Numbered from the stretch's first letter, positions 289-54,730 are shown. The stretch: DNA of 64,000 bases from Kiritimatiellia bacterium (GCA_027858345.1 JAQICX010000242.1:2787-66786); one strand, 5' to 3'. Made by a program: numbers and translations. The notes: generated by a model not told the origin, from the sequence alone.

Positions 289-1476
289 CTATCCGTAGGC
301 TCCAAGCCCTAAGAATGCACGTTTTTTTGCTGTTTTGTACATTAAGCTTTTCTCAGGTATTGGTTTTTCAATTGAACTGTGTGATGGATTTTGGGGTAAT
401 TTAGAAAGTTCATCATAAAAGGTGTCTCTTCCTGATGAATCCATACCACCAAGTTCTTTCGATATTTCAGCTAATAGCTGTGGGTTTTCCAGAAGTATGC
501 ATCCATCAGTTTCCTTGAGTGTGGCATCTCGGAGCTCTTTCATAAAAACAGATTGTTCGACAATATTAGCTGTGTCACCTTCTTTTAATGTGTCAACAAA
601 TAGTTGGACAGGTGGGCAGAACTCAAGTTGTCCAAAAGAGTTGACATGATGACTTAAACCTACATTTGCAGGGCATAGAGGTTGTCCTTTGTGATTCCAA
701 TATGAATCTATTATAAGAATTGGAGCTTTCAGCCTTATGTTTACAATAAATTCTCTAAGATTTGTGATCTGTTCCTTAGATAATGCTTTCTCTGGAGAGG
801 GTATTGGTCCGACTGGGCGGTATATATAGTACCACATGTAGTGAACTTTTTTTAAAATAAGAAAATCTATAAATTTCTTATTGACCAGTTCATCATAGTT
901 ACTATTGCAAATGCTCGAAGCAACACCTGTGAATAGTCCTAGTCCAGTGCAGTTTTCTATTCCTTGGATTGCTGTGTTGAAAACATTGTCTCCACCGCGT
1001 CTTTCGTCACTCTCTTCTTCAAGACCTTCAAGACTTATTAAAGGTGTGACGTTGCCGACTGATTTGAGTTTTTGTGCTATATCTTTGGTAAGTAATGTTC
1101 CATTGGTGAACAGTTGAAAATAACAATCAGGATGAGACTCAAATATCTTAAAAAGATCTGGATGTAATAGCGGCTCTCCTCCAAGTATGCCAAAGAAAAA
1201 ACGCCCTCGTTTTTTTGCATCAGTTATAATCTTGTTTATTTGTTCAATGGGCATGTCATTTGGTGGAGAAGGACTGACCCAGCAACCTTTACAATGAAGG
1301 TTGCATCTGTTTGTTATGGATATGAATAAAAAAGCAGGGAAGTAGAACTCTTTTTGTCTCTCTTTTTGAAAACGCTTAATGGTTTTTGCACTTTTCAGAC
1401 AAAAGTTTTTAAACATAATTTTTCGTAGTTTAGGGTCTACTTCTTTTATAATTCTGGTTGTTAGTTTAAATATCAT
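289..1476 (-). CDS. radical SAM enzyme (CxxxCxxC cluster; GGEPLL motif; C-terminal auxiliary-cluster-like region with sparse Cys)
   Basis: Translated ORF has NRCNLHCKGCWVS (C-x3-C-x2-C) and GILGGEPLL, typical of SPASM/twitch-type rSAM. It overlaps the upstream ferredoxin gene by 11 nt. Confidence 0.7.
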   Translation of the reverse strand: MIFKLTTRIIKEVDPKLRKIMFKNFCLKSAKTIKRFQKERQKEFYFPAFLFISITNRCNLHCKGCWVSPSPPNDMPIEQINKIITDAKKRGRFFFGILGGEPLLHPDLFKIFESHPDCYFQLFTNGTLLTKDIAQKLKSVGNVTPLISLEGLEEESDERRGGDNVFNTAIQGIENCTGLGLFTGVASSICNSNYDELVNKKFIDFLILKKVHYMWYYIYRPVGPIPSPEKALSKEQITNLREFIVNIRLKAPILIIDSYWNHKGQPLCPANVGLSHHVNSFGQLEFCPPVQLFVDTLKEGDTANIVEQSVFMKELRDATLKETDGCILLENPQLLAEISKELGGMDSSGRDTFYDELSKLPQNPSHSSIEKPIPEKSLMYKTAKKRAFLGLGAYG

Positions 1477-2128
1477 CTTTGAATATCTTATTTATGTTAC
1501 GGTTAGCAAAAGCCTTGTATATGTCACCATCAAAGATATTGTCAGGTTCAATCGGTTCAGCTGAACCATTGATTGAAGGTTCCGGATGTTTTGGGAAGAC
1601 AATAGCACCTTGTGGACATAGTCTTGCACATGCGGGACAGTTATCTTTGCACGCCGAAGGATTTGTTATACAAATTTCGCCTTTTTCGTTTTTTGAGTAT
1701 ACTTTGAATATGCAGAATTCATAGCACTGTCCACAGTTTGTGCATAAACTTCGTTCTATGAAGGGATTCCATGAATCAGAAGCAGATACTATCTCTTTTG
1801 TGGCATCACCTTGATCAAGGCTGTCAATATATTTTAGAAGTTCTTCTTCTGTTTCAGTGTTCACACCTTTTATATTAATTGATTTTTCAACATTAATATA
1901 GTCAAGTATTGCTTTGATTGCTTTTTCTGAGCAAGCAATAATGCATTCTGAATTTTCAAGTAGAGATTTGCATACTGAAGTATTCGTCACAGCAATGTCA
2001 CAAAAATCTTCCAGTTCAACGATGTGAACGTTTCTGGTCTGCAGTTTGTCAAGAATAGAGTTTATGACAGATTGCTCTGTTCTACCTCTATTCCTGCAAG
2101 TACATAAAATTATTTTACTTTTACACAT
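1466..2128 (-). CDS. iron-sulfur protein with C-terminal 2x[4Fe-4S] ferredoxin domain
   Basis: Motifs CTNCGQCYEFC and CKDNCPACARLCP. The N-terminal Cys-rich domain has unknown function. The gene overlaps both neighbours, suggesting translational coupling. Confidence 0.6.
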   Translation of the reverse strand: MCKSKIILCTCRNRGRTEQSVINSILDKLQTRNVHIVELEDFCDIAVTNTSVCKSLLENSECIIACSEKAIKAILDYINVEKSINIKGVNTETEEELLKYIDSLDQGDATKEIVSASDSWNPFIERSLCTNCGQCYEFCIFKVYSKNEKGEICITNPSACKDNCPACARLCPQGAIVFPKHPEPSINGSAEPIEPDNIFDGDIYKAFANRNINKIFKDDI

Positions 2129-3294
2129 TTAAACTGACCGTTGCTACCTCTTATGTATAACTTGCCATTTGACAGGGATGGTGCTGTCCAGTATTTGCCT
2201 CCACCTTCTATGACTTTTTTAGAACCAAGTTTGTTCATTGTGTTCTTGCTGACATCATAATACGATAGGGTTCCTTTTTCATCAATAGAAACAATTGTTT
2301 CGCCGGCAAGTATGATGCTGCAGAAGTTTGAATTTTCATCTTTCCATACGACTTCACCAGTTTCCGCGGATATTGCCTCCAATTTTCCTCTTCCTGTATT
2401 TCCGTCTGAACCATATATTAGTCCATTGTAATAGATTGGTGATGGAAAGTGAGATCGCATGTTTTTGTTTTGCCAAAGAGGTTTTAGTTCTGTTCCGTTA
2501 AACTCCAGCAATATGCAATTACCACTGTAACCGTATGAAAGAAAAATGTTTTTGCCATCATTGAATACAACAGGGTTAGCGGCATTAACATTCAATTTGG
2601 CTTTCCAATCATAGTTTGCAACCAGCTTTCCTGTCTTCGCTTCTTTAATGTTCAATGTTTCACCGAGGAATGCCACATAGTCTTTGCCCATATATGTGAA
2701 CACGACAGGTGTTGAATATGACGATGTGCCAGGAATTTCGCCCCATAAAATTTTTCCGGTTTTTGCATCAAATGCCATACCGCTTCCACCTGTCTGAACA
2801 AAAAGCATGTTACCATAAATAATAACAGAGCTTGATAGTCCCCACCCTAAACCTTTGATGCCTTTGTCTTTTAGATTGTTTTCCCAGACCAGTTTTCCGT
2901 CCTTCAAATTTACACAGACCAACCTTCCTGATCTACTGAAAGAATATACGGTTTTCCCATCCGTAACAGGTGTTGCCCTTATTCCCTTGTAGTCCTTGCC
3001 GGGTGATTCTGCATATTTGTACTCCCATATAACAGAGCCATCAGATTCTTTTAAGCAGTATATGGTATCGTTTGTTCCATCGTTGCCTGAAGCTAAAACA
3101 AGACCATTATATATCGATGCACCAGAATAGCCTTGCCCTATATTTTTTTCCCATAGGCCTGTAGCTGATTCAATTTTGCCGACTTCTTCCTTGGTGATAC
3201 CGGTGCTGTCTTCACCTCTCCAATATTGCCAGTTACTTGCAAAACCTAATGTGATAATTGCAAGAAATGCAATAGTTGATACTGTTTTTTTCAT
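2110..3294 (-). CDS. secreted PQQ-like (BamB/YVTN-type) beta-propeller repeat protein
   Basis: N-terminal signal peptide (MKKTVSTIAFLAIITLGFA). Repeated G-x-V/L-Y-x-G-S-x-D-G and W motifs are typical of PQQ enzyme repeats. Confidence 0.65.
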   Translation of the reverse strand: MKKTVSTIAFLAIITLGFASNWQYWRGEDSTGITKEEVGKIESATGLWEKNIGQGYSGASIYNGLVLASGNDGTNDTIYCLKESDGSVIWEYKYAESPGKDYKGIRATPVTDGKTVYSFSRSGRLVCVNLKDGKLVWENNLKDKGIKGLGWGLSSSVIIYGNMLFVQTGGSGMAFDAKTGKILWGEIPGTSSYSTPVVFTYMGKDYVAFLGETLNIKEAKTGKLVANYDWKAKLNVNAANPVVFNDGKNIFLSYGYSGNCILLEFNGTELKPLWQNKNMRSHFPSPIYYNGLIYGSDGNTGRGKLEAISAETGEVVWKDENSNFCSIILAGETIVSIDEKGTLSYYDVSKNTMNKLGSKKVIEGGGKYWTAPSLSNGKLYIRGSNGQFKCVKVK

Positions 3295-3384
3295 TTTTTA
3301 CCTTTCGTTTTTACCTGGTTCTGGTCAGAGTTTTTACTCTATTCCAGCCCTATTTAGTTTTAAATCAATGAGATACAGACTATT

Positions 3385-3640
3385 TAGCCTTATCCCCACG
3401 TTTTTTCGTAGGTCACCGCCCGACGCTACAGGCGTTGCTTCCCTATTCAACCTTTTCCCGAGCCGGGGGGCGACTCGGCTACAGGACTTATTCTGCAAGC
3501 TAACCCTAGCCCGCAAAGCTCCTCCCGCTTTTAGGGGAGGTGGCGAGGAGTGACACGACCAAAGGGAAGTGAGGCTGGAGCTTGCGACAGCAATGAAACG
3601 CAGTGTAATGTCCCACCTAGACGGAGGGGTATTCCGTTCA
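3385..3640. repeat. GC-rich mosaic repeat (GTAG-REP family B unit cgcccgacgctacaggcg, ccgagccgggg...ctcggctacagg, ggaggtggcgag, gacggaggggtattc modules)
   Basis: Modules shared with 25560-25700, 26470-26590, 46660-46700 and 49265-49300. Confidence 0.5.
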
Positions 3641-3690
3641 TTGGACATTCCCCTTTTCATATTTTTTCATACAATTTTTGACAGTACCTT

Positions 3691-4470
3691 TTACCTTCCT
3701 GCTTGACATAGACCTCTTGTTGAAGATTCCAGAAACTTCAAAAAGTCTAGGGCAATTTCAGATGTGTATTCTTTTTTTATTTGTTCTTTAGCCTGTGTGA
3801 AATTTAGTCCTGAGTGATATAGCGTGTAATGCAGACTCTTGATCTCTTTACGCTCTTCAGGCGTAAATCCAGAGCGTTTAATTCCAACGGCATTCAACCC
3901 TGCAATAACATTTGGCAAACCAGTCATTGTCATTGAATAGGGGGGCACGTCCTTGGTTACAACAGACATTGCTCCAAGAATGCTGTATGAACCAACTTTT
4001 ACAAACTGATGAACTCCGCTTCCACCACCAAAAAACACATTGTCTCCAACTTCGACGTAGCCTCCAAGCATTGTATTGTTGGCAAGTATGACATTATTGC
4101 CTACTTTGCAGTTGTGTGCAACGTGTGATACTGCCATGAACATGCAATTGTTACCAATTACAGTTGATGTTTCCTCTTTCGTTCCACGGTGAATAGTCAC
4201 GCCTTCACGCATTGTACAATTGTCACCAATTATAACATATGATCGGTTATTGTTGAAATCATGGTCTTGTGGTAAGTCACCAATTACACTGTTTGCATGA
4301 AATGTGCAATTCTCGCCTATTGTTGTGTGACCCAATATTGTGACTCTTGGTCCAATAACTGTTCCTGCACCAATTCTCGAATCTTTCTCAATATATGAAA
4401 AAGCACCTATCTTGACATCTGGAGCAATTATGACTCCATCTTCAATTATCGCAGTTTCGTGTATCATCAA
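3691..4470 (-). CDS. lpxA: acyl-ACP--UDP-N-acetylglucosamine O-acyltransferase
   Basis: 259 aa with hexapeptide repeats throughout and the conserved LpxA C-terminal helical domain (GLN..G..R.GF...E...I...Y). Confidence 0.8.
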   Translation of the reverse strand: MMIHETAIIEDGVIIAPDVKIGAFSYIEKDSRIGAGTVIGPRVTILGHTTIGENCTFHANSVIGDLPQDHDFNNNRSYVIIGDNCTMREGVTIHRGTKEETSTVIGNNCMFMAVSHVAHNCKVGNNVILANNTMLGGYVEVGDNVFFGGGSGVHQFVKVGSYSILGAMSVVTKDVPPYSMTMTGLPNVIAGLNAVGIKRSGFTPEERKEIKSLHYTLYHSGLNFTQAKEQIKKEYTSEIALDFLKFLESSTRGLCQAGR

Positions 4471-5444
4471 TAACTTCTCTTTCTAAATTTAATTGGTGTT
4501 GTACCTGTTGTTTGTTTAAATTGTCGTATAAAGTAACTTTGATCTGAAAATCCCAAGTCGTAAGCAATATCTGTACAAGATAAGTCAGTCTCTAAAAGCA
4601 GTTCTTTTGCCTTTGATATTCTAATCGACTTTATATGTTGCTGTATTGTAAGCCCTGTATGTTCTTTCACCAAATGGGAGACTCTAAATGTGCTAAGTTT
4701 AACCTCTTTTGAAATATCTTGCAAGGAAATTGAACCACTAAAGTTCTTTGAAATATAATTTAGTATCCTTTCTACTTTCTTATTTGCTTTGTTCGAACTT
4801 TTATTATGTATATAATCAATAAGCTCATCTAGTGAGTCTCTCAATGCCGGCCACAAATTTTCCGGCTGATCTCCTGCAACAATAATATTATTTATCCAGT
4901 GCAGGTGCTTTTCCATCAGAGGTTCCAGGACAGGATTGTCCTCTACCGCACAGCGTACGAGATAACCTAACATTTCAATTGCTCGCGCCTGCAGCAATGA
5001 ACCTTTAGGGTTATAGATAAACATATCGGCAAGAATATTGTTGAAGAGCTCTCTAGCTCTTGTTTTGTTTCCTACTCTTATGAATGAAAAAAGCAATTTT
5101 TCTTCCTGGAAAGAATAAAATGATTTAGCAATAACCTTCTTTTTATGAATTTTTTCTGCAATTGAACGTTGTTGGTTTGCATTGGCAAGGTTTGTATCTA
5201 GTATTCCTGACTTCCAACCACTGATGTCATAAAACAGTTCAAATAGGTGCTGTGCGGCACCAGTAGCAATGCTGATGTCATAATATTTCAGAGAATCAAA
5301 ATATTTAGCAGCCTGATTACGTAAAATACCACATGAGGCTAAATGGTTGATGCTCTCATCACGATAATATGTTTCTTGGTTATATATGATTTCACCACCA
5401 GATAAAGCACCTTTTATCTCATTGTCTTTTACAAGTGGAATCAA
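4467..5444 (-). CDS. AraC-family transcriptional regulator
   Basis: C-terminal double HTH (ISLQDISKEVKLSTFRVSHLVKEHTG...IAYDLGFSDQSYFIRQFKQTTGTTP). The stop overlaps the lpxA start (ATGA). Confidence 0.75.
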   Translation of the reverse strand: MIPLVKDNEIKGALSGGEIIYNQETYYRDESINHLASCGILRNQAAKYFDSLKYYDISIATGAAQHLFELFYDISGWKSGILDTNLANANQQRSIAEKIHKKKVIAKSFYSFQEEKLLFSFIRVGNKTRARELFNNILADMFIYNPKGSLLQARAIEMLGYLVRCAVEDNPVLEPLMEKHLHWINNIIVAGDQPENLWPALRDSLDELIDYIHNKSSNKANKKVERILNYISKNFSGSISLQDISKEVKLSTFRVSHLVKEHTGLTIQQHIKSIRISKAKELLLETDLSCTDIAYDLGFSDQSYFIRQFKQTTGTTPIKFRKRSY

Positions 5445-11896: not shown

Positions 11897-14800
11897 CTAC
11901 GGCTCAAGCTCAAGCCAGACACGACCGCGGAAGAAGTTTCCCGGTGCTTCGTCTATCCGGTTGGTATAGCTGACGGATTGTCCCTCGCCCGCCATCTTGG
12001 ACAGCCCAGTCACCTTCTGCCAGACACCAGTCGTCAGATCGTCCGCCTGCTCTAGTGCATAGTACCGAAGGCCACCCAAGCCGTAGAAACCGCCGGCTGG
12101 CACAGTCGGGAAAGACACCACCGCTGTTCCGTTGCTCATGCCGATCCCGAGCCGGAACACGCTTTGCGAGTTCACTGCGTCTGTTCCCGCCACGTACTCC
12201 TGTGCATTGGGTGCTCCGTCGCCGTCCAAGTCCGCCTGTTCGTGTTCTGCAAACTGATTCGTCCAGGCTGGATTAAGCTGGTTCAGCCACGCCTCCGGTA
12301 TGCCGGAAGCCGTCAGATTGGCCAGAAAATCGGCTGACAGGGCATGTTCGTCCCACACATTCGTAAACGCGACGTTCATCAGAGGCCCTGTTGCAAGCCC
12401 ATCCAACATCACCGAGCCGACTCCATAGAACTGGTCGGGCAGAACCACGATATTGGTCGAAGCCCCCACAGGAACCAACACGTCACCTTCAGGCACAACT
12501 CGTCCATGTGAACCGGACTCAGCCGTAATCTTGCGGTACAGCATTGAGTTGTAGGTATCGACCACAATATCATCGACCTGTCCCTCACCCGAGAAGCCGA
12601 CGCTGCTCAAGTAATTGCGATTCGTATTAGCCGCCGCGTACCATACGGACGGATGCGTCACGGGAATGCGGTTGACCCAGATCCGGAACCCGAAGGCTCC
12701 GTTCAAATCGCGGGCATAGTCCGCCATCAGGGTCAGCCGGTTAAAATCGTTCGACGAGACAACTACATCCGTCAATTCGCTACACCGGTTCGTACTGCCA
12801 GCCTGGCCATGCCATACTATTAATTTCTGGTCGCTGTTAACCCAAAGGGCGATCTGCGCCTCTGGAGTAATTTCGACCGGCACCTCATCCTCACCAGGAT
12901 TGAACGCCATGAGCATATCCACACAGACATTGTCCAGCACATCTGTCTGCTCGAACTGCTGAGTAATGCCTCTGTTGAAGGACAGGCCCTGCTTATGCGA
13001 GCCTGCAATCGGACTGTCACCCGGCTCCGCAGCCGTATACCTGTTGGTTTCAACCACTGCGCACTGAGGATCATAACCCTGCCACCCCCCTATGCCGTTC
13101 AACAACGAACCGAGTTCATAATTTTCAAAGGATTCCTTGTAAGGCAAACTATTTGGTGGGTTTACATCGGTGACAGTCACGGTAACGAAACGATTCGTCA
13201 CCAACTGCCCGTAAATCATCGTCAGCATCAATTCATACGTGCCAAGGTGCGTGAAAAACGCCTCCGCATCGGCCTGCGTTGGATTCTCCAACACGACCGA
13301 AGAGTCTCCTGGAGAAGACCAGATAAAGTGGACGGAATTCGTCATCCCGCTCAAAACCTCCGCCGACGCATGCAGACCAACACGATTTGTAAACGTCAGA
13401 TTGACTGTCGAGTTCACCTGTGCCGTAAAAGCAGGGATGTTCGTGTAAACCATAATCCATACCACCGGCGATAGGGCGTCACCCTCGTCATCAATCAGTC
13501 GTGCCGAGAGTGTTCTAACACCCTCGCGTGCCTCCAATGCAATAGTCGCAGTGTACGGAGCGGATGAATCGCTGGCCACATTCGTCCCATCAATAGCAAA
13601 AACCACCTGACTTACCGTGCCAATGATAAAGGCCGGATCCACTTCCGCCGTCACCGTAATCGAAACAGGCGACAGGAATCCAGTATTAGCCAGAGGAGCT
13701 ATCACAGCAACCTTGGCCGGGCCGTATCCAGGGGTCGGATAAATTCCAGCCACCCAACTCGCCGGGTCATCCCCGCTACTCCGACCAGTAAGATGTGTCA
13801 GTGCTCGCCCCGTACCGTCCGCTTCCGCAGGCCAAGGTGCCGCATCGTAATACGTAACCTGGTCAATCACATGCCAGGAAATGTCTTCGATCGGCGCCGG
13901 CGGATCACCAAATACCGGCCGCTCCAGTCGCACGGCGTCGGTCTTGTTGTTCAGTTGCCCGCTATACGGACCCAGCATGCGAATCTGCCCGTTGGACAGC
14001 CCGTAGGCGTCCAGGAAAGCGGTTCGCTTTGCGATGTTGTTCGAGGGATCAAATGATACTACAACCAACCGCTCGCCTGCCGACAAAACCGTATTGCTGG
14101 GAAACAGATACCCGATGCCACCAGCCAGACGCCAAGCACCCCCCACGTCGTTGACGATGTTCGTCAAAGCGATTGCCTGCGCCGTCGGGTTGTACAACTC
14201 GACGAATTCGTCGTTTTCGTTGTTCTCAGGATTAGCTGTAGTCGGCTTGGGATGGTACATGATCTCGGAGATTACCACGCTGGCGGCGGTCAACCGGTTC
14301 GAGGCGCCGGGCGTCGGGACGCCATAGAACCAGGACGCCGCCCCGTCGGGATACCGGATCAGCGGCACGCCATTCTCCTCGCCCTTGATGGACACGGCGT
14401 CCACCACGCGGTCCGTCGCTCCCGTGCCCATGCCCGGCAGGTAGGACAACAGCACCTGCTCGTCCGCCTTGTTCAGGCCGAACCCGTTGGTGATCGGATT
14501 ATGAAAATCATGGATTTCGTCAAAATAACGCCACTCGTGTGCCGCGAGCGTGTTGGTCGCCGGAATCGCCCACTTGGTCAGTTCCTCCAGATCGTCGCTC
14601 AGATACCACCCGGAACCCAGCGGGATCGGAGCCGCGGTCACGTTGTATAGTTCGATACCGTCGTTGGAGTCGTAGGGCGGGCTGTCGATGTCCGTGTGTG
14701 CCAAAATCTCGTTCAGCACCAGCGATGCGGCGGGCGCAACCGGCTCGGCCTCGCCCGGCGACCCGCCAATGTAGACACTGGCCTTCCAGTTGCCGGGATA

Positions 14801-17800
14801 GTCCAGTTCGCCGTCCGCCTGCGTCACGTCTGACAGCGGTACAAGCGAATGCCCCGCGCCGTCGGCCGCCGGCAGCCACTTGTCATTGTAAGTGAACGAC
14901 ACCACGTTGCGACCGAGCGCGTCTTCGATCTCGATCTTCTCGCCGGCGTTGTCGAGACTGGTTGACGGAAAGACGAACGCGCCGGCGATCTTGCCGACAG
15001 CCACCGTCGGATACCTGTTCGTGAACGCAATGATGTTCTTGACCACCAGCACATACTCGTCGGGATTCAGGACGGTTACGGCGCTCTCCGTGAAATCGAA
15101 CGCCACGCCCTGGGTGAAATGCAGACCGGTTAGACCGATGGGCGCGGTGCCGGCGTTCTGCAACTCGATGAATTCGTCGTCGCCGTCCAGACAGCTTTCG
15201 CCGCCGACCGATACCGGCTGGCGCGGGTGAAACATCAGCTCCGTCACCCGCAGGTCCGGCTTGTCGGCCAGCGTGAACACCGCCTCGGTCAGGGCACTCC
15301 ACTCGCCACCCGCCGAGAGCGCACGGGCCTTGACGTGCACCGTGCGCGTCAACGGCACGGCCGCGGAATACAACGTCCCCGTCGCCGCTCCCGTGCCATA
15401 CTGACGCGGATCGGAGCCGTCCAGCGTGTAGTAAATCGGGTTCCCAGCGGTCACAACCAAATTAAAGCTGTTGTCGAACAGGCCACCAAATTGGCTGAAC
15501 TCTGGTGCGTCCACGGCAGGATAAAGTCCATTAGCTTTCAGCATCTGCATGAATATCGCCGGACGCAGAGGCAAGAACGTATTCAACACGTAGTTGCGCA
15601 TAACGCGCCACTGCTCGACCGTATGAGCAGCCTGACCGTCCTGGTCTCCCCAACGTGCACTCTCTGCAACAATGGCCTGCTCAACCTCTTCCGATAGTGC
15701 CTGATAACGTGCAATTGTGACCTCCGGTGTCAATTGCCCGCCATTAAAAAGATATTTATGCACACGGTCGGCGAACCGCAACTTGTATTCCGCATTCCCA
15801 ACCAACCGACCCTGAATCACGGCTACGCCATTGATATCGCCGATCTTGTCAGTATTGAGTGTGCTCCTGTCCAACCCCAATGCCATTTCGGCATCCCAGA
15901 CACCAAACTTGAATCCTGTACTCGCCGAATCGTTCCTGTCGCGGAATGCCCGCCAGTTATTCCCCGGCCAGTCATCAACCGCTAATGCATACTGCACGAT
16001 CATATAGTCAATGTAATTCCCAACATCCAGATAGATTGGATAAGCCAGATTACGCGTGCCGTCCTCATTGTTGCCCTGCACCTTCTGATATGCCGTGTTG
16101 CTACCCTGACCGTTGGCCAGCTCGTCCAGCATAACGTTCCAAGCCGTACCATTGCCGTCTTCTACTCCATCCTGACTGATCACATCCCACGTATCGTCCC
16201 GTCCGCCGCAATAAGAGGCTGCAAACTCACCAGAAATATGTTCCGTCATATTGTAGAGTCCCCAATACAAACCGTTCAAATAAAGATGGACAAAAGTGCC
16301 GTGCGGAGAAACCCCGCCCATGGTAAGATGCGTACGCCGGACGAACTCATCAACAATATACTGCGTCCTTTCATGCCCACTGCTGTTCCAACCGTCATTG
16401 GCCCCAGAACGCAATACAAGATCGTTGAAAGAGCTGACTGCGTTGCCTGAAAAAAGATTTTCCTTCAGATGACCCTCACCATAGATGCTTCTGAACTGAA
16501 ACGTGAACGACTTCTTTCTTGTGGCACCCATGTCCCTGAAATAGCCGCCCTGAACCCGCAAACCGCAATCAATCTGAAACTTGCTGGTGTTGTCAACCTT
16601 GATAAACTCAACCGAAGCCTCGCGTTCCCAATTGTCGCCAGTTCCGAAGGGATTGACGTAAATGCCGGTCGACGAGTCGAACAAGTTCGCCTGGGGCGTC
16701 ACCACAGATATGGTGGGCAGGGAAGTCAGTGCGTTTGTCAGAGCTGCACTGGAACTCGACACGATAATCTGATCCATGCCGTAGTCAGCCGCGGTGCCGT
16801 TCCAATCTGTCGGCCAACCGGACGGCGTTGCGGACTGGCTCAAAACGTCGTCCAGCACGATATAGCTATGGGTATCAATACCCGAGGGCACCCAATCACT
16901 CTTAAATGCAGCCGCACGGATGATGGCGGTGTTAACAAAATTGAACGGTGACGAATAGAGTGAACTGGTGACCGTCGGTTGCTCGGCATTGGTCGTGTAC
17001 CGGATCTGGACTTCGGACATGTCGCAACTCGCCGTCACCTCCGGCACGGCGGTGGTGTACACGCCTCGCTTCAGAGAAAACTTGACCCCGGCCACCTCGT
17101 TACTGGGACTGGAAAACGCATTACCATCCCCCGGCGTCGGCTCAGCAAAATAGCGATACTCCCCGGTGAGACCGATACCGTAGGACATATCGTCGTATTG
17201 CTGGGGGAATTCCGGCACATACTCCGAGAGCACGGTGACACCGTCCGCCTTCACCAGCGCCAGATACTCGCCGTCGCCGCTCAGTTTGAAGTTGGCGTGC
17301 AACTCGTTGTTGGTCACCGAGTACGACTTGTCGTCGGCCCAGACCAGCAGGTAGCCTTTGCCGGGAATGGTAGACGCCGAACCAGCGGGAAACTGCCACT
17401 TCGTAGGCGTAGCCACCTTGTCCGTCAAATACCAACCGGCCAACGACACGCTGGAAGAATTCGGATTGTACAATTCGACCCAATCCCCATACTTGTCCAG
17501 CGAGTTCTTGATCGTCGTGTCATTGAGTGCCATGAATTCGTTTATGACGATATTGGTCACCACATCGGGCAGCCCGGCAATCAGTTCGGGAAGAATCAGC
17601 ATGTCAGAACTTGAACCGAGATTTAACGAGTGAACTGCTAGCACATTAGTGCCGGTCGTCAACTGTGGAAGGAATGACGTAATGTCGTAATTCTGGAAAA
17701 TCATTGCCTGGCTGTCGTCGTGACTGGCCGATGCTCGCGTATCCCAACTGGCTCCAGCCGGTGCATTGACGCGTGCGACTTCAACGCCGTTCAAATAGGC

Positions 17801-18265
17801 AATAAAACCATCATCGTACTTGACTCGCAACGTCAAGGATAAGTAAGTCTTGCCTGTCGAAACTTCGAACGGGAAACGGGTGTAAATAGCAATTGTGTTG
17901 TTTAACACTGTGGTGCCAAATAGTGCTTTATAGGTCTGATTATTGTCGTACCCCAAACCGCTGTGGCCGAAGTTCCACGTTGAATCGTTGAAGGCAGGTG
18001 CAGTCCAGTTCGTGCCGTCCAAACCATTCGCCGGCACCTGATACTGGCATGCAGCACCGGATGCCACCAGGGGCTCGTCCAGCGCCAACACCGAGCCGGC
18101 AGCAAGCCCAATACCCATCGCAATAAGAAGTGTCAACAAAAGCCCCAGCCGTTTCATACACCTTTGCATCATTGCCGATAGCATCCAATAGCCCGAACAG
18201 AAACGGTCGACCGACTCGTAGTTCTGCGTGCACAGAATTCGTTCCATGTTTGTCATTTCATTCAT
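11897..18265 (-). CDS. giant secreted CotH-family (atypical protein kinase fold) protein with four lamin-tail domains and a C-terminal Ca-binding-like DLDGDG repeat
   Basis: Four LTD signatures: INEFMA...WVELYNPN...LAGWYLTD, VTELMFHP...EFIELQN, VLNEILAH...GIELYN, VISEIMYHP...EFVELYNP. CotH core: LRSGANDGWN...TQYIVDEF...HLYLNGLYWGLYN. Signal peptide MKRLGLLLTLLIAMGIGLAAGSVLA. GC content is far above the flanks. Confidence 0.65.
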   Translation of the reverse strand: MNEMTNMERILCTQNYESVDRFCSGYWMLSAMMQRCMKRLGLLLTLLIAMGIGLAAGSVLALDEPLVASGAACQYQVPANGLDGTNWTAPAFNDSTWNFGHSGLGYDNNQTYKALFGTTVLNNTIAIYTRFPFEVSTGKTYLSLTLRVKYDDGFIAYLNGVEVARVNAPAGASWDTRASASHDDSQAMIFQNYDITSFLPQLTTGTNVLAVHSLNLGSSSDMLILPELIAGLPDVVTNIVINEFMALNDTTIKNSLDKYGDWVELYNPNSSSVSLAGWYLTDKVATPTKWQFPAGSASTIPGKGYLLVWADDKSYSVTNNELHANFKLSGDGEYLALVKADGVTVLSEYVPEFPQQYDDMSYGIGLTGEYRYFAEPTPGDGNAFSSPSNEVAGVKFSLKRGVYTTAVPEVTASCDMSEVQIRYTTNAEQPTVTSSLYSSPFNFVNTAIIRAAAFKSDWVPSGIDTHSYIVLDDVLSQSATPSGWPTDWNGTAADYGMDQIIVSSSSAALTNALTSLPTISVVTPQANLFDSSTGIYVNPFGTGDNWEREASVEFIKVDNTSKFQIDCGLRVQGGYFRDMGATRKKSFTFQFRSIYGEGHLKENLFSGNAVSSFNDLVLRSGANDGWNSSGHERTQYIVDEFVRRTHLTMGGVSPHGTFVHLYLNGLYWGLYNMTEHISGEFAASYCGGRDDTWDVISQDGVEDGNGTAWNVMLDELANGQGSNTAYQKVQGNNEDGTRNLAYPIYLDVGNYIDYMIVQYALAVDDWPGNNWRAFRDRNDSASTGFKFGVWDAEMALGLDRSTLNTDKIGDINGVAVIQGRLVGNAEYKLRFADRVHKYLFNGGQLTPEVTIARYQALSEEVEQAIVAESARWGDQDGQAAHTVEQWRVMRNYVLNTFLPLRPAIFMQMLKANGLYPAVDAPEFSQFGGLFDNSFNLVVTAGNPIYYTLDGSDPRQYGTGAATGTLYSAAVPLTRTVHVKARALSAGGEWSALTEAVFTLADKPDLRVTELMFHPRQPVSVGGESCLDGDDEFIELQNAGTAPIGLTGLHFTQGVAFDFTESAVTVLNPDEYVLVVKNIIAFTNRYPTVAVGKIAGAFVFPSTSLDNAGEKIEIEDALGRNVVSFTYNDKWLPAADGAGHSLVPLSDVTQADGELDYPGNWKASVYIGGSPGEAEPVAPAASLVLNEILAHTDIDSPPYDSNDGIELYNVTAAPIPLGSGWYLSDDLEELTKWAIPATNTLAAHEWRYFDEIHDFHNPITNGFGLNKADEQVLLSYLPGMGTGATDRVVDAVSIKGEENGVPLIRYPDGAASWFYGVPTPGASNRLTAASVVISEIMYHPKPTTANPENNENDEFVELYNPTAQAIALTNIVNDVGGAWRLAGGIGYLFPSNTVLSAGERLVVVSFDPSNNIAKRTAFLDAYGLSNGQIRMLGPYSGQLNNKTDAVRLERPVFGDPPAPIEDISWHVIDQVTYYDAAPWPAEADGTGRALTHLTGRSSGDDPASWVAGIYPTPGYGPAKVAVIAPLANTGFLSPVSITVTAEVDPAFIIGTVSQVVFAIDGTNVASDSSAPYTATIALEAREGVRTLSARLIDDEGDALSPVVWIMVYTNIPAFTAQVNSTVNLTFTNRVGLHASAEVLSGMTNSVHFIWSSPGDSSVVLENPTQADAEAFFTHLGTYELMLTMIYGQLVTNRFVTVTVTDVNPPNSLPYKESFENYELGSLLNGIGGWQGYDPQCAVVETNRYTAAEPGDSPIAGSHKQGLSFNRGITQQFEQTDVLDNVCVDMLMAFNPGEDEVPVEITPEAQIALWVNSDQKLIVWHGQAGSTNRCSELTDVVVSSNDFNRLTLMADYARDLNGAFGFRIWVNRIPVTHPSVWYAAANTNRNYLSSVGFSGEGQVDDIVVDTYNSMLYRKITAESGSHGRVVPEGDVLVPVGASTNIVVLPDQFYGVGSVMLDGLATGPLMNVAFTNVWDEHALSADFLANLTASGIPEAWLNQLNPAWTNQFAEHEQADLDGDGAPNAQEYVAGTDAVNSQSVFRLGIGMSNGTAVVSFPTVPAGGFYGLGGLRYYALEQADDLTTGVWQKVTGLSKMAGEGQSVSYTNRIDEAPGNFFRGRVWLELEP

Positions 18266-48893: not shown

Positions 48894-49265
48894 CCTTGAT
48901 TTTTCGGTTGAGTCACTTTATGAGAACGAGGACGACTGTAGGCCATTCACTACGTTCATTGCTTCACCCTATTGTTTATCTGTAATGGTTAAAGCCTCTC
49001 TCGCAGGCTCGAGTCTCGCTCCCAAACTTGCAGATTAATATTGTCTTGCAGGAATGGGAACCCACCCCTCCGTTCTCGTTCCTCGAACACCTCCTCCCGC
49101 AGAGCGGGACTAGCAAAACGCTAGCCGGGGAGGAGCTAATACGTCCTCATCGTCATAATAATTTGTTTTTCCCATTTATCACCAAAAACCGAGGAAATTT
49201 AAGATTCATTCCTTGATCTTATTGGCTCAAACGAACATTTTTATCTCCAACCGAAAAACTAAGGG
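48894..49265. mobile_element. MITE-like element (372 bp) with 16-bp TIRs ccttgatttttcggtt / aaccgaaaaactaagg
   Basis: Both termini read directly. The internal 150-bp block is about 95% identical to 54447-54590. Confidence 0.65.
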
Positions 49266-52020: not shown

Positions 52021-53742
52021 TCACTGCGGATCGATGATTATGACTGCGGAAGCCCCCTTGTGGGGGAAGCGGATCGTAAGTCCCTTTTCGAGCAATTCTT
52101 CTCCGGCGACAACTTGGTCTGCCCCGTATCCCTCTGGCATGCTAAGATGATAAGACCGATCAGGATTCACCCCGCGCAGGACAAGGGTGTGCCCCAGCGA
52201 AGGATCTCCGCCATGGAAAACAAACAGCAGCGCCTCGCTGCTTTGGGGGTTTGCATAGAGCGCCGCCTGCATGGAGCACGGTTCTAAGACATTGATTTGC
52301 GGCGTCAGATGGAAAACGTCTGCGTTACGGATTCGTTCGCGGATCTTCTTGAACAATGTGATACGTTCCGCCGCCACCTTGAGCGTTTGGGCGTCCCACT
52401 CGCAGATTTTTCCCGATAGTCCAAAATGCCCGAGTAGGTTTGCCGTAAACGACGTTTCCCTGTCTATGGGGCTTTCCGAATGTGCAGTCGGTGAGACCGT
52501 CCAGTGACTGCAAATCTCAGGTGGAAAAAGGTAGGTTGCGCCGTGGTTCATTGCTAGGTTCACGGGATTATCAACATTGTCCGAGACCCAATGCGTGTCG
52601 GTAAGAGCCACGGTCATTGCGTCCTGCCGTAAGGAACCGCTTGAGCAGTTCTCGACAATCAGTTTCGGGTATGATGTCCGGATATGCTTCAACAGTTCAA
52701 CAAGTCCTCGGTAGTGGCGGTAAAGTGGGTCGGTTTCCGGGGTAAGGCGTTCGCCGTCCACGGGCAGGTCGGTGTTGAAGTCCATTTTGATGTAGTCGAG
52801 CGCATAAGTCGTTACGAGGTGATCTATCACCGACTTCGCCCAGGCAACGACATCGGGATTCTTGAAATCGAGAGCGGTTCTGTCGGATAGTTGCCTGTCA
52901 CCGTGTTTCAATATCCATTCGGGATGCTCCATTACCACCTGAGAATTCGGCGAGGCACACTCGATCTCGATCCAGAGCCCTAACTTCATTCCCAACCGTC
53001 GGACTTCCTTCGCAATGGGCTCAAGGCCGCAAGGAAAACGTTGCAGGTTCACCTCCCAGTTCCCTAATTCTCCGCTCCAGTCTGCTTTCGCCCCCGCACC
53101 ATACCAGCCGGCATCGATCGTGAACTGTTCGCAGCCGATCCCGGCGGCAACACGAGCCGCATCAAAGAGTTGTTTATCATTGATCTTTTCGTAGGCGTCA
53201 TACCATGTGTTGTATTGAACAGGTGGCCAATCTGGACCCATGTCGCGGAGCAGTTTTGAACGAATGAAGCGAACAATCGCCTGGGATCCATCATCCCAGT
53301 GGTCGGCAAAAGTCGCCACCAACGCACCGGGGATAGGCATTCCTCCGAACTCAGCGAATGGTTTGAGGCCTGACGGAAAGGTTTCAACACGCAAAACAGT
53401 CCGCCCATTTAGGGGTTTGATCTCAATAACCCAGTTTCCACTGTATGCGATGAGCACAGCGATCCCTTGGCCTGTTTTCGTGTTCCTAACGGCCACCCAT
53501 GGCTTGAGCGTCGTCGCGCTGCGGCCTTTTTTCTGTACAAAACGAAAACCAGTGGCGGGTATGCGACGGGTCTTAAGGAGATACTCTCTCATTGCGTCGC
53601 CGCTGAACGTCAGCATCTCATAGTCCACCACAGAGCCATGAAGTTCCTTTTCGAATGGTAACGTCACCGGCTCTGCCAATCGAGCTGCTTCCGTGGATGC
53701 GTTCGCTTGTTGCGAAGCTGTTTCGTGAAACGATTTATCCAT
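52021..53742 (-). CDS. glycoside hydrolase, alpha-galactosidase/melibiase-like (GH36/GH27 clan)
   Basis: TIM-barrel-type FTIDAGWYG (D-x-GW) and large catalytic-domain size. GC-rich relative to the genome. Family assignment tentative. Confidence 0.45.
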   Translation of the reverse strand: MDKSFHETASQQANASTEAARLAEPVTLPFEKELHGSVVDYEMLTFSGDAMREYLLKTRRIPATGFRFVQKKGRSATTLKPWVAVRNTKTGQGIAVLIAYSGNWVIEIKPLNGRTVLRVETFPSGLKPFAEFGGMPIPGALVATFADHWDDGSQAIVRFIRSKLLRDMGPDWPPVQYNTWYDAYEKINDKQLFDAARVAAGIGCEQFTIDAGWYGAGAKADWSGELGNWEVNLQRFPCGLEPIAKEVRRLGMKLGLWIEIECASPNSQVVMEHPEWILKHGDRQLSDRTALDFKNPDVVAWAKSVIDHLVTTYALDYIKMDFNTDLPVDGERLTPETDPLYRHYRGLVELLKHIRTSYPKLIVENCSSGSLRQDAMTVALTDTHWVSDNVDNPVNLAMNHGATYLFPPEICSHWTVSPTAHSESPIDRETSFTANLLGHFGLSGKICEWDAQTLKVAAERITLFKKIRERIRNADVFHLTPQINVLEPCSMQAALYANPQSSEALLFVFHGGDPSLGHTLVLRGVNPDRSYHLSMPEGYGADQVVAGEELLEKGLTIRFPHKGASAVIIIDPQ

Positions 53743-54388: not shown

Positions 54389-54730
54389 CCTTTTCGGTTA
54401 TTTCACTTTATGAGAACGTTTTTCATGCCGTCACGCAGGTGACCGTTCTCGCTCCCAAACTTGCACATCATATTGTCTTGCAGGAATGGGAGCCCCACCC
54501 CTCCGTTCTCGTTCCTCGAACACCTCCTCCCGCAGAGCGGGACTAGCAAAACGCTAGCCGGGGAGGAGCTAATACGTCCTCATCGTCATTAAAAATTATT
54601 TTTCATTTTGTCACCCAATTGTGTCGTGCGAAGCTTGCAAAGCAAAGAATGAAATGGGCAAAAACAAGCTGTCAATCACTAGTTTTGTTGGTCGAAATGC
54701 ATGTTTTTTATCCTAGCCGAAAAATTAAGG
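54389..54730. mobile_element. MITE-like element (342 bp) with TIRs ccttttcggtta... / agccgaaaaattaagg
   Basis: Shares the gagaacg-hairpin, the 150-bp block with 49001-49160, and gtgtcgtgcgaagcttgcaa with 58755-58780. Confidence 0.6.

Follow-up and report, generated by a model that had tools for sequence, protein, structure and literature searches.

An exported beta-propeller, an iron–sulfur protein and a radical SAM enzyme encoded together in a Kiritimatiellia bacterium, with a gene context in relatives that points to isoprenoid lipid chemistry

A stretch of 64,000 nt from a Kiritimatiellia bacterium (GCA_027858345.1, JAQICX010000242.1:2787-66786; hereafter the window, with positions counted from its first nucleotide) carries three overlapping minus-strand genes for an exported beta-propeller protein, an iron–sulfur (Fe-S) protein, here called FER, and a radical S-adenosylmethionine (SAM) enzyme. 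The initial annotation had not recognized this trio as a described system, and we likewise found none that matches the module or its wider gene cluster, either in the literature or among curated families; the context of the radical SAM gene points to isoprenoid lipid chemistry. The genes that accompany FER and the radical SAM gene most closely and most widely are those of isoprenoid enzymes, rather than that of the propeller. Across hundreds of anaerobic bacterial species, the two genes open a cluster whose product would be a cyclic isoprenoid. For this reason we favor a reading, to which we give about an even chance of being right, in which the radical SAM enzyme, with its own reductase, has an isoprenoid lipid as substrate and the propeller serves as periplasmic partner.

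In the window, the propeller gene (2110..3294, minus strand, 394 aa; open reading frame (ORF) call and PF13360) comes first, followed by the FER gene (1466..2128, minus strand, 220 aa; ORF call and homolog alignment) and the radical SAM gene (289..1476, minus strand, 395 aa, from a family of about 397 aa; ORF call and PF04055). Both junctions overlap: the 3′ end of the propeller gene shares 19 nt with the start of FER (2110..2128, minus strand), the FER ATG lying 19 nt within the propeller gene (..AAATGTGTAAAAGTAAAATAA), and the 3′ end of FER shares 11 nt with the start of the radical SAM gene (1466..1476, minus strand), whose ATG lies 11 nt within FER (..GATGATATTTAA). ORF calling and inspection of the junctions reproduced exactly the coordinates first given for the three genes and the two overlaps. 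Since the FER and radical SAM starts match the N-termini of their homologs, the overlaps are real and not an artifact of start codon choice. The 19-nt overlap of propeller gene and FER recurs in three other loci among relatives, and the FER–radical SAM junctions there are tight or overlapping, with a modal gap of −4 nt and most values between −4 and +10 nt. A synteny search found the order of the trio repeated in relatives from several phyla at 45–80% identity; given this recurrence across phyla, the arrangement is far beyond chance. The proposal of a co-translated three-gene operon is borne out by the overlaps and the conserved order, and a co-transcribed, translationally coupled unit is supported. 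Promoter and terminator scans yielded no more sites than in shuffled sequence. The window itself is ordinary chromosome, with EF-Tu, rpoB- and rpoC-sized ORFs and two tRNAs. FER is 100% identical to the NCBI entry ‘hypothetical protein PF692_14625 [Kiritimatiellae bacterium]’, and the nearest genome locus to the trio belongs to a Victivallales metagenome-assembled genome (MAG). Scans with Pfam and NCBIfam named none of the three proteins beyond superfamily level, and no curated family claims any of them.

The gene neighborhood in relatives was assessed by calling ORFs in 85 loci and clustering them without reference to annotation; gene order was counted over the 83 non-duplicate loci. FER stands directly upstream of the radical SAM gene in 69 of 76 loci, and a fusion of DUF116 with polyprenyl_synt (~530 aa) directly downstream of it in 66 of 71. 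The radical SAM gene, this synthase, a toroid protein (~294 aa) and a cyclase (~590 aa) are contiguous in 50 of 61 loci, and in 5 more the series is interrupted. Pfam and NCBIfam confirmed these neighbors as a polyprenyl synthase, an alpha/alpha-toroid protein and a DxDD class II ‘SHC-like’ cyclase. D.DD[TS] (VPDxDDT) is present in all but one of the 60 cyclases and the first Asp-rich motif, preceded by KASL[IV]H, in all but one of the 71 synthases; from the kept motifs, both enzymes look active. By the rules of chain-length control, small residues before the first Asp-rich motif allow a longer product, and such residues in these synthases suggest one longer than C20. The propeller gene is less fixed in its place. 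In 20 of 64 loci it immediately precedes FER, which is the arrangement of the window; in 27 loci, one to three copies follow directly after the cyclase, and 14 of the 39 fully flanked loci have no propeller gene within 8 kb or more. At loci L003 (8901-12200) and L004 (6611-9910), an SHC-like cyclase is fused to a PQQ_2 propeller in a protein of 1099 aa. One transmembrane helix is predicted between the two parts (around residue 656 of the 1132-aa ORF from L003 8802), which implies, if the prediction holds, a cytoplasmic cyclase and a periplasmic propeller.

Some clusters continue with a gene for an NHL-like protein with a signal for twin-arginine translocation (Tat), and a Tat-signal ferredoxin together with a NapH/NosR-like membrane polyferredoxin is added in 12 of the 39 fully flanked loci. 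At L070 (16589-19444, a Prevotella MAG) and in 11 other fully flanked loci, we observed these as a set of three genes downstream of cyclase and propellers, encoding the Tat-signal NHL-like protein, a Tat-signal 2x[4Fe-4S] ferredoxin (NapG/HybA-like) and a NapH/MauN/NosR-like polyferredoxin with 6–8 transmembrane segments. By sequence, the NHL-like and NapG/H-like genes look like a quinol-to-periplasm electron module on the terpenoid cluster. As a separate observation, the genes directly upstream of propeller, FER and radical SAM gene in Marinifilaceae (L005, L008, L012, L016, L024, L035) encode an ABC ATPase, an FtsX-type permease of ~1095 aa and an extra propeller; this set may serve the system for export.

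FER consists of two parts. Its N-terminal alpha/beta domain (1784..2128, minus strand) was delimited by conservation and by a beta-alpha-beta arrangement in the AlphaFold2 model (pLDDT 81), and contains the conserved residues C9, C11, C43 and C66, which may form a metal or cluster site. A structure search with this domain gave generic Rossmann-like matches only and no specific solved homolog. The second part (1589..1771, minus strand) is a bacterial-type 2x[4Fe-4S] ferredoxin domain, as seen from Cys conservation and structural matches: the motifs C129-x2-C132-x2-C135-x3-C139 and C160-x3-C164-x2-C167-x3-C171-P vary little or not at all among homologs, the second being a CxxxC variant. Pfam Fer4 models score below cut-off for the FER of the window and above cut-off for its Prevotella ortholog at L070. 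In structure, the domain matches the ferredoxin domains of PAPS/APS reductase beta, PorD, HdrA and HgcB with root-mean-square deviations of 1.5–2.1 Å. A metagenomic protein of 675 aa (P0137) is a natural fusion of the two partners, with FER at residues 1 to ~230 and the radical SAM enzyme at 270-661. Because the genes are adjacent in 69 of 76 loci and this fusion exists, it is strongly supported that FER is a dedicated partner of the radical SAM enzyme, as the initial annotation had supposed for the 2x[4Fe-4S] protein.

The third protein belongs to the radical SAM superfamily according to PF04055 (74 bits against a cut-off of 29.5), the cluster motif C58-x3-C62-x2-C65 (1282..1305, minus strand; radical SAM [4Fe-4S] cluster, invariant in 63 sequences), the GGE within G99-G-E-P-L-L, invariant in the family alignment, an alternating beta/alpha core in the AlphaFold2 model (pLDDT 93.6) and matches to radical SAM structures. 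The region after the core resembles half a SPASM domain (499..675, minus strand). It has C268-x13-G282-x4-C287 and the single C326, all four residues being invariant, and its beta-strands 275-278 and 283-287 form a hairpin in the model. A full SPASM domain carries seven Cys in the pattern Cx9-15Gx4C ... Cx2Cx5Cx3C ... C and binds two auxiliary clusters; the twitch domain of the BtrN/SkfB type is a truncated SPASM domain with a Cys-flanked beta-hairpin and one auxiliary cluster. Motif and hairpin of the twitch type are present in the enzyme of the window, Cx2Cx5Cx3C and a PF13186 match are lacking, and NF033640 is not among the best 25 of 57 NCBIfam matches. Further Cys are C118 and C190. The family alignment confirmed what had been noticed at the outset, namely CxxxCxxC and GGEPLL motifs combined with a sparse, non-canonical set of C-terminal Cys. 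Judged by the model, the enzyme is a member of the SPASM/twitch structural group, and it probably carries one auxiliary Fe-S cluster.

Both ends of the enzyme are extended. An N-terminal extension (residues 1-45; 1342..1476, minus strand) forms two basic amphipathic helices in the model (2-12 and 15-40), shows the highest hydrophobic moment of the protein, contains 14 K/R and 6 aromatic residues, and has the family consensus RLLWKFxYNFGWK. Alignments further reveal a conserved aromatic and basic C-terminal tail, IPEKSxxYRFAKKxxFFGFGAYG (292..360, minus strand), with helices at 378-390 in the model. Both extensions are amphipathic, basic and aromatic and have no transmembrane segment; the Pfam scan detected no domain in the C-terminal part, and the model has no N-terminal domain beyond the two helices. 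With these properties, the N-terminal helices may bind the membrane interface, and the tail may contact the membrane or a partner.

Classification with hidden Markov models (HMMs) rules out a housekeeping tRNA or cofactor enzyme, as no NCBIfam model comes near its cut-off. The best match, NirJ1, reaches 79 bits against 650; with NirJ2, AhbC and assorted SPASM maturases the best matches cover residues ~50-220 at 50–79 bits against cut-offs of 225–650. In a profile search of PDB sequences, likewise, only the core is matched (SkfB best, E 2e-20). Foldseek with the model returned SuiB, SkfB, BlsE, anSME, MoaA and PqqE at TM-scores of 0.5–0.6, and on these models the enzyme is without a close solved relative. 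SuiB and SkfB come closest (Foldseek E about 7e-14, TM-score about 0.6). Together with BtrN they share the Cx(9-15)Gx4C hairpin after the core; unlike them, the enzyme of the window has no peptide-recognition domain, no second SPASM half and no co-encoded precursor peptide, the matches are confined to the core, and the extensions at both of its ends are peculiar to its family.

This family is large. In a library clustered at 50% identity, we counted 621 representatives at E ≤ 1e-30, and relatives occur in at least 594 GTDB species genomes. Full-length relatives of ~397 aa at 45–54% identity were found in Labilibaculum, Marinifilum, Kiritimatiellales, Chloroflexia and others; the carriers comprise Victivallales, Lentisphaeria, Verrucomicrobiota, Planctomycetota, Riflebacteria, Nitrospirales and many Bacteroidales. 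Some of the carriers are MAGs with the labels Prevotella, Alistipes, Parabacteroides, Bacteroides, Tannerella and Akkermansia sp., and cultured carriers of the full cluster include Labilibaculum, Marinifilum flexuosum and Oligosphaera ethanolica DSM 24202. The next-closest family (P0171 and relatives) was noted in passing. Its members have ~460 aa, radical SAM and SPASM domains and no NCBIfam assignment, match profile positions ~4-350 at 190–270 bits, and occur in DPANN archaea, bacteria of the candidate phyla radiation, Hydrothermae and Bacteroidales, with tandem paralogs in a Pacearchaeota contig. The gene context of this second family is uninformative (L120, L121); at L120 its gene adjoins an ICMT/PEMT-like membrane methyltransferase.

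The mechanism we propose on this basis runs as follows. The radical SAM enzyme would be cytoplasmic and peripherally attached to the membrane, probably with one auxiliary Fe-S cluster. FER would re-reduce the radical SAM cluster, so that SAM is cleaved to the 5′-deoxyadenosyl radical. In most lineages, FER and the radical SAM gene head a larger operon that goes on with genes for a DUF116-polyprenyl synthase, a toroid protein and a DxDD cyclase, and the enzyme would carry out radical chemistry on an isoprenoid lipid made or cyclized by these neighbors. The Sec-exported, BamB-like propeller would act on the periplasmic side, where, beyond the cytoplasmic membrane, it may bind the product, pass it on or help in its processing. 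In the Victivallales/Kiritimatiellae clade of the window, the module has parted from the synthase and cyclase genes and is still kept by selection. What we infer in this scheme is that the substrate is a lipid, that the enzyme associates with the membrane, which way the electrons flow and what the propeller does.

Known radical SAM enzymes that act on isoprenoids offer partial parallels. HpnH, adenosylhopane synthase, adenosylates hopene and so acts directly on a lipid; it needs an external reductant and is encoded next to shc. Like the radical SAM gene of the clusters described here, hpnH thus lies beside a class II triterpene cyclase gene, and HpnH has a short N-terminal extension before CxxxCxxC, its HMM alignment to the enzyme of the window starting at residue 39. 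The latter is nevertheless no HpnH (TIGR03470, 51 bits against 225, residues 39-208 only): it differs in its C-terminal half, in its twitch-like Cys set and FGFGAYG tail, and in its dedicated co-encoded ferredoxin-like partner, and the cyclase of the clusters belongs to the SHC-like group and is found beside a head-to-tail polyprenyl synthase instead of squalene synthesis genes. The archaeal tetraether synthase Tes (GDGT-MAS), also a radical SAM enzyme, couples isoprenoid lipid tails at the membrane. It matches the core weakly (7tol, E 1e-7; NF045702, 38 bits against a cut-off of 450) and is much larger, with a different architecture and a different gene context; by these scores, the enzyme of the window belongs to neither the HpnH nor the Tes family.

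Several observations weigh against a lipid substrate. No experiment or characterized homolog ties the radical SAM family to any substrate. The likeness of the enzyme to HpnH and Tes is no better than that to other SPASM-group enzymes, its nearest solved relatives, SuiB and SkfB, are peptide maturases (although at the shared core fold only), and its membrane binding is argued from composition only. HMMs of synthase, toroid protein and cyclase built from the loci found none of the three in the whole 64-kb window, which covers 62.5 kb on the propeller side, nor in ~7 kb past the radical SAM gene (L119, from the same organism) or in relatives of the clade. Of the cluster as defined in relatives, the window and the L119 flank hence hold FER directly upstream of the radical SAM gene and not the synthase-toroid-cyclase series; the trio of the window may act without isoprenoid genes or on another substrate. 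Finally, in a reciprocal test we scanned metagenome contigs with an alignment of upstream-type propellers. All nine loci with a propeller of at least 40% identity and enough sequence have an adjoining FER, and all six that extend far enough also carry the radical SAM gene. Five of these six run on into the synthase, and most propellers at or below 37% identity with enough flanking sequence are unlinked.

The last result bears on the role of the propeller, which had initially been put forward as the substrate of the radical SAM enzyme. That the protein is a secreted PQQ-like beta-propeller (PQQ, pyrroloquinoline quinone) was borne out by PF13360 (PQQ_2, 97 bits against a cut-off of 27.6) and by a signal peptide (3235..3294, minus strand; MKKTVSTIAFLAIITLGFA, with SN after the cleavage site), which was read from the translation, its cleavage site being inferred, and which is the most hydrophobic 19-residue window of the protein. 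Orthologs have equivalent N-termini, followed by W..WRG. In a profile search against PDB sequences, BamB/YfgL came first (E about 9e-21) and PQQ dehydrogenases next. With BamB, which carries no cofactor, and PQQ_2 propellers the protein shares fold, size and export; unlike BamB, it has a cleavable-looking signal peptide whose N-terminus, by reading, lacks the lipobox Cys, it is encoded with Fe-S and radical SAM genes, and TIGR03300 gives 63 bits against a cut-off of 285. A PQQ dehydrogenase is equally not indicated (TIGR03075, 42 bits against 480; 394 aa against ~570 aa or more). PF01011 reaches 36.3 bits, above its whole-protein cut-off of 26.7, but none of the matched stretches passes by itself, and the best one covers only the last 54 of 595 profile positions. 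Insertions of cofactor-binding quinoproteins are lacking.

If the propeller were the substrate, the radical SAM enzyme, with FER as reductant, would modify it in the cytoplasm before Sec export, introducing a crosslink or a protein-derived cofactor. Precedents exist, as anSME and QhpD modify their substrates before export, and many protein and peptide maturases belong to the same fold group (anSME 4k39, E 4e-10, TM-score about 0.5). As in anSME/sulfatase and QhpD/QhpC, one member of the trio is secreted, so that modification before export is conceivable. The constant adjacency of close propeller orthologs to FER, wherever the sequence permits a check, speaks for it too, and so does the clade of the window, where only the trio is conserved together, translationally coupled and under purifying selection. 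Against these points stand the 14 of 39 fully flanked loci that have no propeller within at least 8 kb, its variable position (upstream or downstream) and copy number, the isoprenoid enzymes as the invariant partners of FER and the radical SAM gene, and the cyclase-propeller fusion, which links the propeller to the cyclase. A search for a target motif in the propeller singled out only W..WRG, which is equally present in propellers without a linked radical SAM gene; its orthologs have no conserved Cys, Ser or Lys target motif, the invariant residues being mostly structural W and G. Sulfatase partners of anSME, by comparison, carry a C/S-x-P-x-R motif. No sulfatase gene appears in the ORF listing of the window operon, and TIGR03942 (anSME) is not among the best 25 of 57 NCBIfam matches of the enzyme. 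The anSME/QhpD model that had been drawn on fits poorly, since the enzyme lacks the full seven-Cys SPASM domain, its N-terminal extension consists of two modeled helices, and its partner is not consistently adjacent. We therefore regard the propeller as less well supported as a substrate than an isoprenoid lipid, and as an unlikely one. Under the lipid-directed reading we prefer, it is taken as a periplasmic accessory, because its place in the cluster shifts, it can be joined to the cyclase across the membrane, and it resembles BamB.

A different link between enzyme and propeller would exist if the radical SAM enzyme made a small-molecule prosthetic group, for instance of the tetrapyrrole type as NirJ and AhbC/D do, that is exported and inserted into the propeller. 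Its best HMM matches are indeed NirJ1, NirJ2 and AhbC, heme d1 with the NirF, NirN and NirS propellers offers a parallel, and the Tat ferredoxin and NapH/NosR-like protein added in many full clusters would feed electrons to periplasmic redox proteins. However, the scores for NirJ, AhbC and AhbD (79, 78, 72 and 57 bits against cut-offs of 500–650, with NirJ1 at 79 against 650 and NirJ2 at 78 against 500) reflect the shared core only, no tetrapyrrole genes were found near the trio in any locus checked, the propeller is BamB-sized and without the quinoprotein insertions, and the NapG/H-like genes, present in just 12 of the 39 fully flanked loci, are absent from the window. Such a cofactor, which would be an oxygen-independent substitute for PQQ in anaerobes, is very unlikely in our judgment.

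The clade of the window has retained the trio only. The window and the loci L001/L116, L006, L086, L117, L118 and L119 share the order AraC-lpxA-propeller-FER-radical SAM. Beyond the radical SAM gene lie unrelated, variable genes, mostly on the opposite strand (in the organism of the window a GH2 glycosidase). In a neighbor-joining tree, the clade is nested within full-cluster lineages on a long branch. This position, and the lack of an adjacent synthase, toroid protein and cyclase in the window, L001, L006, L086 and L116-L119, would suit a trio that is a leftover of the larger cluster, either re-used for an unrelated purpose or being lost. Yet the clade has kept all family-invariant residues, the ratio of nonsynonymous to synonymous substitutions (dN/dS) is 0.07–0.2 for all three genes within the clade (0.09–0.16 for the propeller), with dS saturated, and the trio together with upstream AraC and lpxA genes is conserved in at least six distinct contigs at 68–91% radical SAM identity. 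Invariant residues, low dN/dS and conserved order exclude decay, and a leftover re-used for an unrelated purpose seems quite improbable to us. From the kept invariant residues and a dN/dS of 0.07–0.2, as estimated from sequence, the trio is therefore regarded as a maintained, functional unit under purifying selection.

Upstream of the trio (3691-5444, minus strand; ORF calls), lpxA and an AraC-family regulator gene overlap by 4 nt. The lpxA is bona fide (312 bits against a cut-off of 231), and all across the clade this pair immediately precedes the trio, which is an uncommon setting for an lpxA gene. A leader of 396 nt (3295..3690, minus strand) separates lpxA from the propeller gene and holds a GC-rich, strain-specific insert of ~250 nt with several hairpins (window 3380-3660, minus strand). 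The leader was considered as a riboswitch or other regulatory RNA of the module and rejected as such: the insert is unconserved, being absent from the equivalent spacers of L116, L117 and L118, and is not repeated in the window, no Rfam match was obtained for the leader even at E ≤ 1, and the fold of the insert is weak (z-score −1.56). The GC-rich insert is thus probably not a regulatory RNA of the module. At the other end of the trio, a long inverted repeat resembling repetitive extragenic palindromic (REP) elements lies just downstream of the radical SAM gene (window ~120-160).

Some further features were observed elsewhere in the window. A motif of ~42 nt with the core TTTTTCGGTTGAGACACTTTATGAGAACG has six intergenic copies (window 6920, 28600, 31752, 48887, 51696 and 54377) and may be a promoter/operator or a small repeat element. 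Two intergenic copies of a 111-nt repeat (49061-49171 and 54494-54604) are 96% identical, and GC-rich hairpin repeats of the REP type are found among the intergenic pairs 25748/26474, 18604/22687 and 48704/49993. An ORF of 2122 aa (11897-18265, minus strand) has 55–59% GC compared with ~38% for the genome, contains lamin-tail, CHB_HEX_C, CotH-kinase and Ig-like domains, and looks like a horizontally acquired surface protein. The gene of a GH36 alpha-galactosidase (Melibiase; 52021-53742, minus strand) is likewise raised in GC (~53%).

The cyclases of the full clusters connect our loci to a known problem. A clade of ‘SHC-like’ cyclases of unknown function has been described in PVC, FCB and a few other phyla; its Planctomycetes members have retained the catalytic residues and, by their genomic context, may use a non-squalene precursor (Santana-Molina et al., 2020, PMC7306690; McShea et al., 2025, PMC12324236). 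The cyclases of our loci resemble this clade in their length of ~590 aa, DxDD motif and PVC and FCB hosts; by taxonomy, length, motif and sub-threshold SHC HMM scores they are putative members of it. The window contains no such cyclase gene. The main texts of both papers (PMC7306690, PMC12324236) mention no radical SAM gene, and a full-text literature search returned no paper linking SHC-like cyclases to the radical SAM enzyme, FER or propellers. For a Bipolaricaulota strain, Fig. S12 of 10.1101/2025.11.21.689855 shows ispH, shc, hpnH and a polyprenyl synthase gene as neighbors of a DUF116 gene, which, as far as this figure goes, fits an isoprenoid role for DUF116.

Taken further, FER and the radical SAM enzyme with the propeller could be the signature of a hitherto uncharacterized, oxygen-independent, squalene-free pathway to cyclic polyprenoid lipids that stand in for hopanoids or sterols, an idea we hold only tentatively and would not bet on. 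If true, anaerobes of gut and sediment among the PVC bacteria and Bacteroidales would widely possess this pathway, the radical SAM enzyme would perform new chemistry on an isoprenoid (adenosylation, C-C coupling or making the substrate of the cyclase), and the propellers would carry the product to or across the periplasm. Here, cyclases of the SHC-like kind share a fixed operon with a dedicated radical SAM enzyme, an Fe-S reductase and a fused polyprenyl synthase, so that the cluster is a testable gene set in the search for bacterial cyclic isoprenoids of a new class that form without oxygen; its hosts include MAGs labeled Prevotella, Alistipes, Parabacteroides and Akkermansia sp. Such lipids would bear on membrane biology, on the interpretation of terpane biomarkers and on the catalog of radical SAM chemistry. 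The trio-only version in the window is, in this respect, a natural experiment, in which radical SAM enzyme, reductase and propeller are retained without adjoining cyclase genes.

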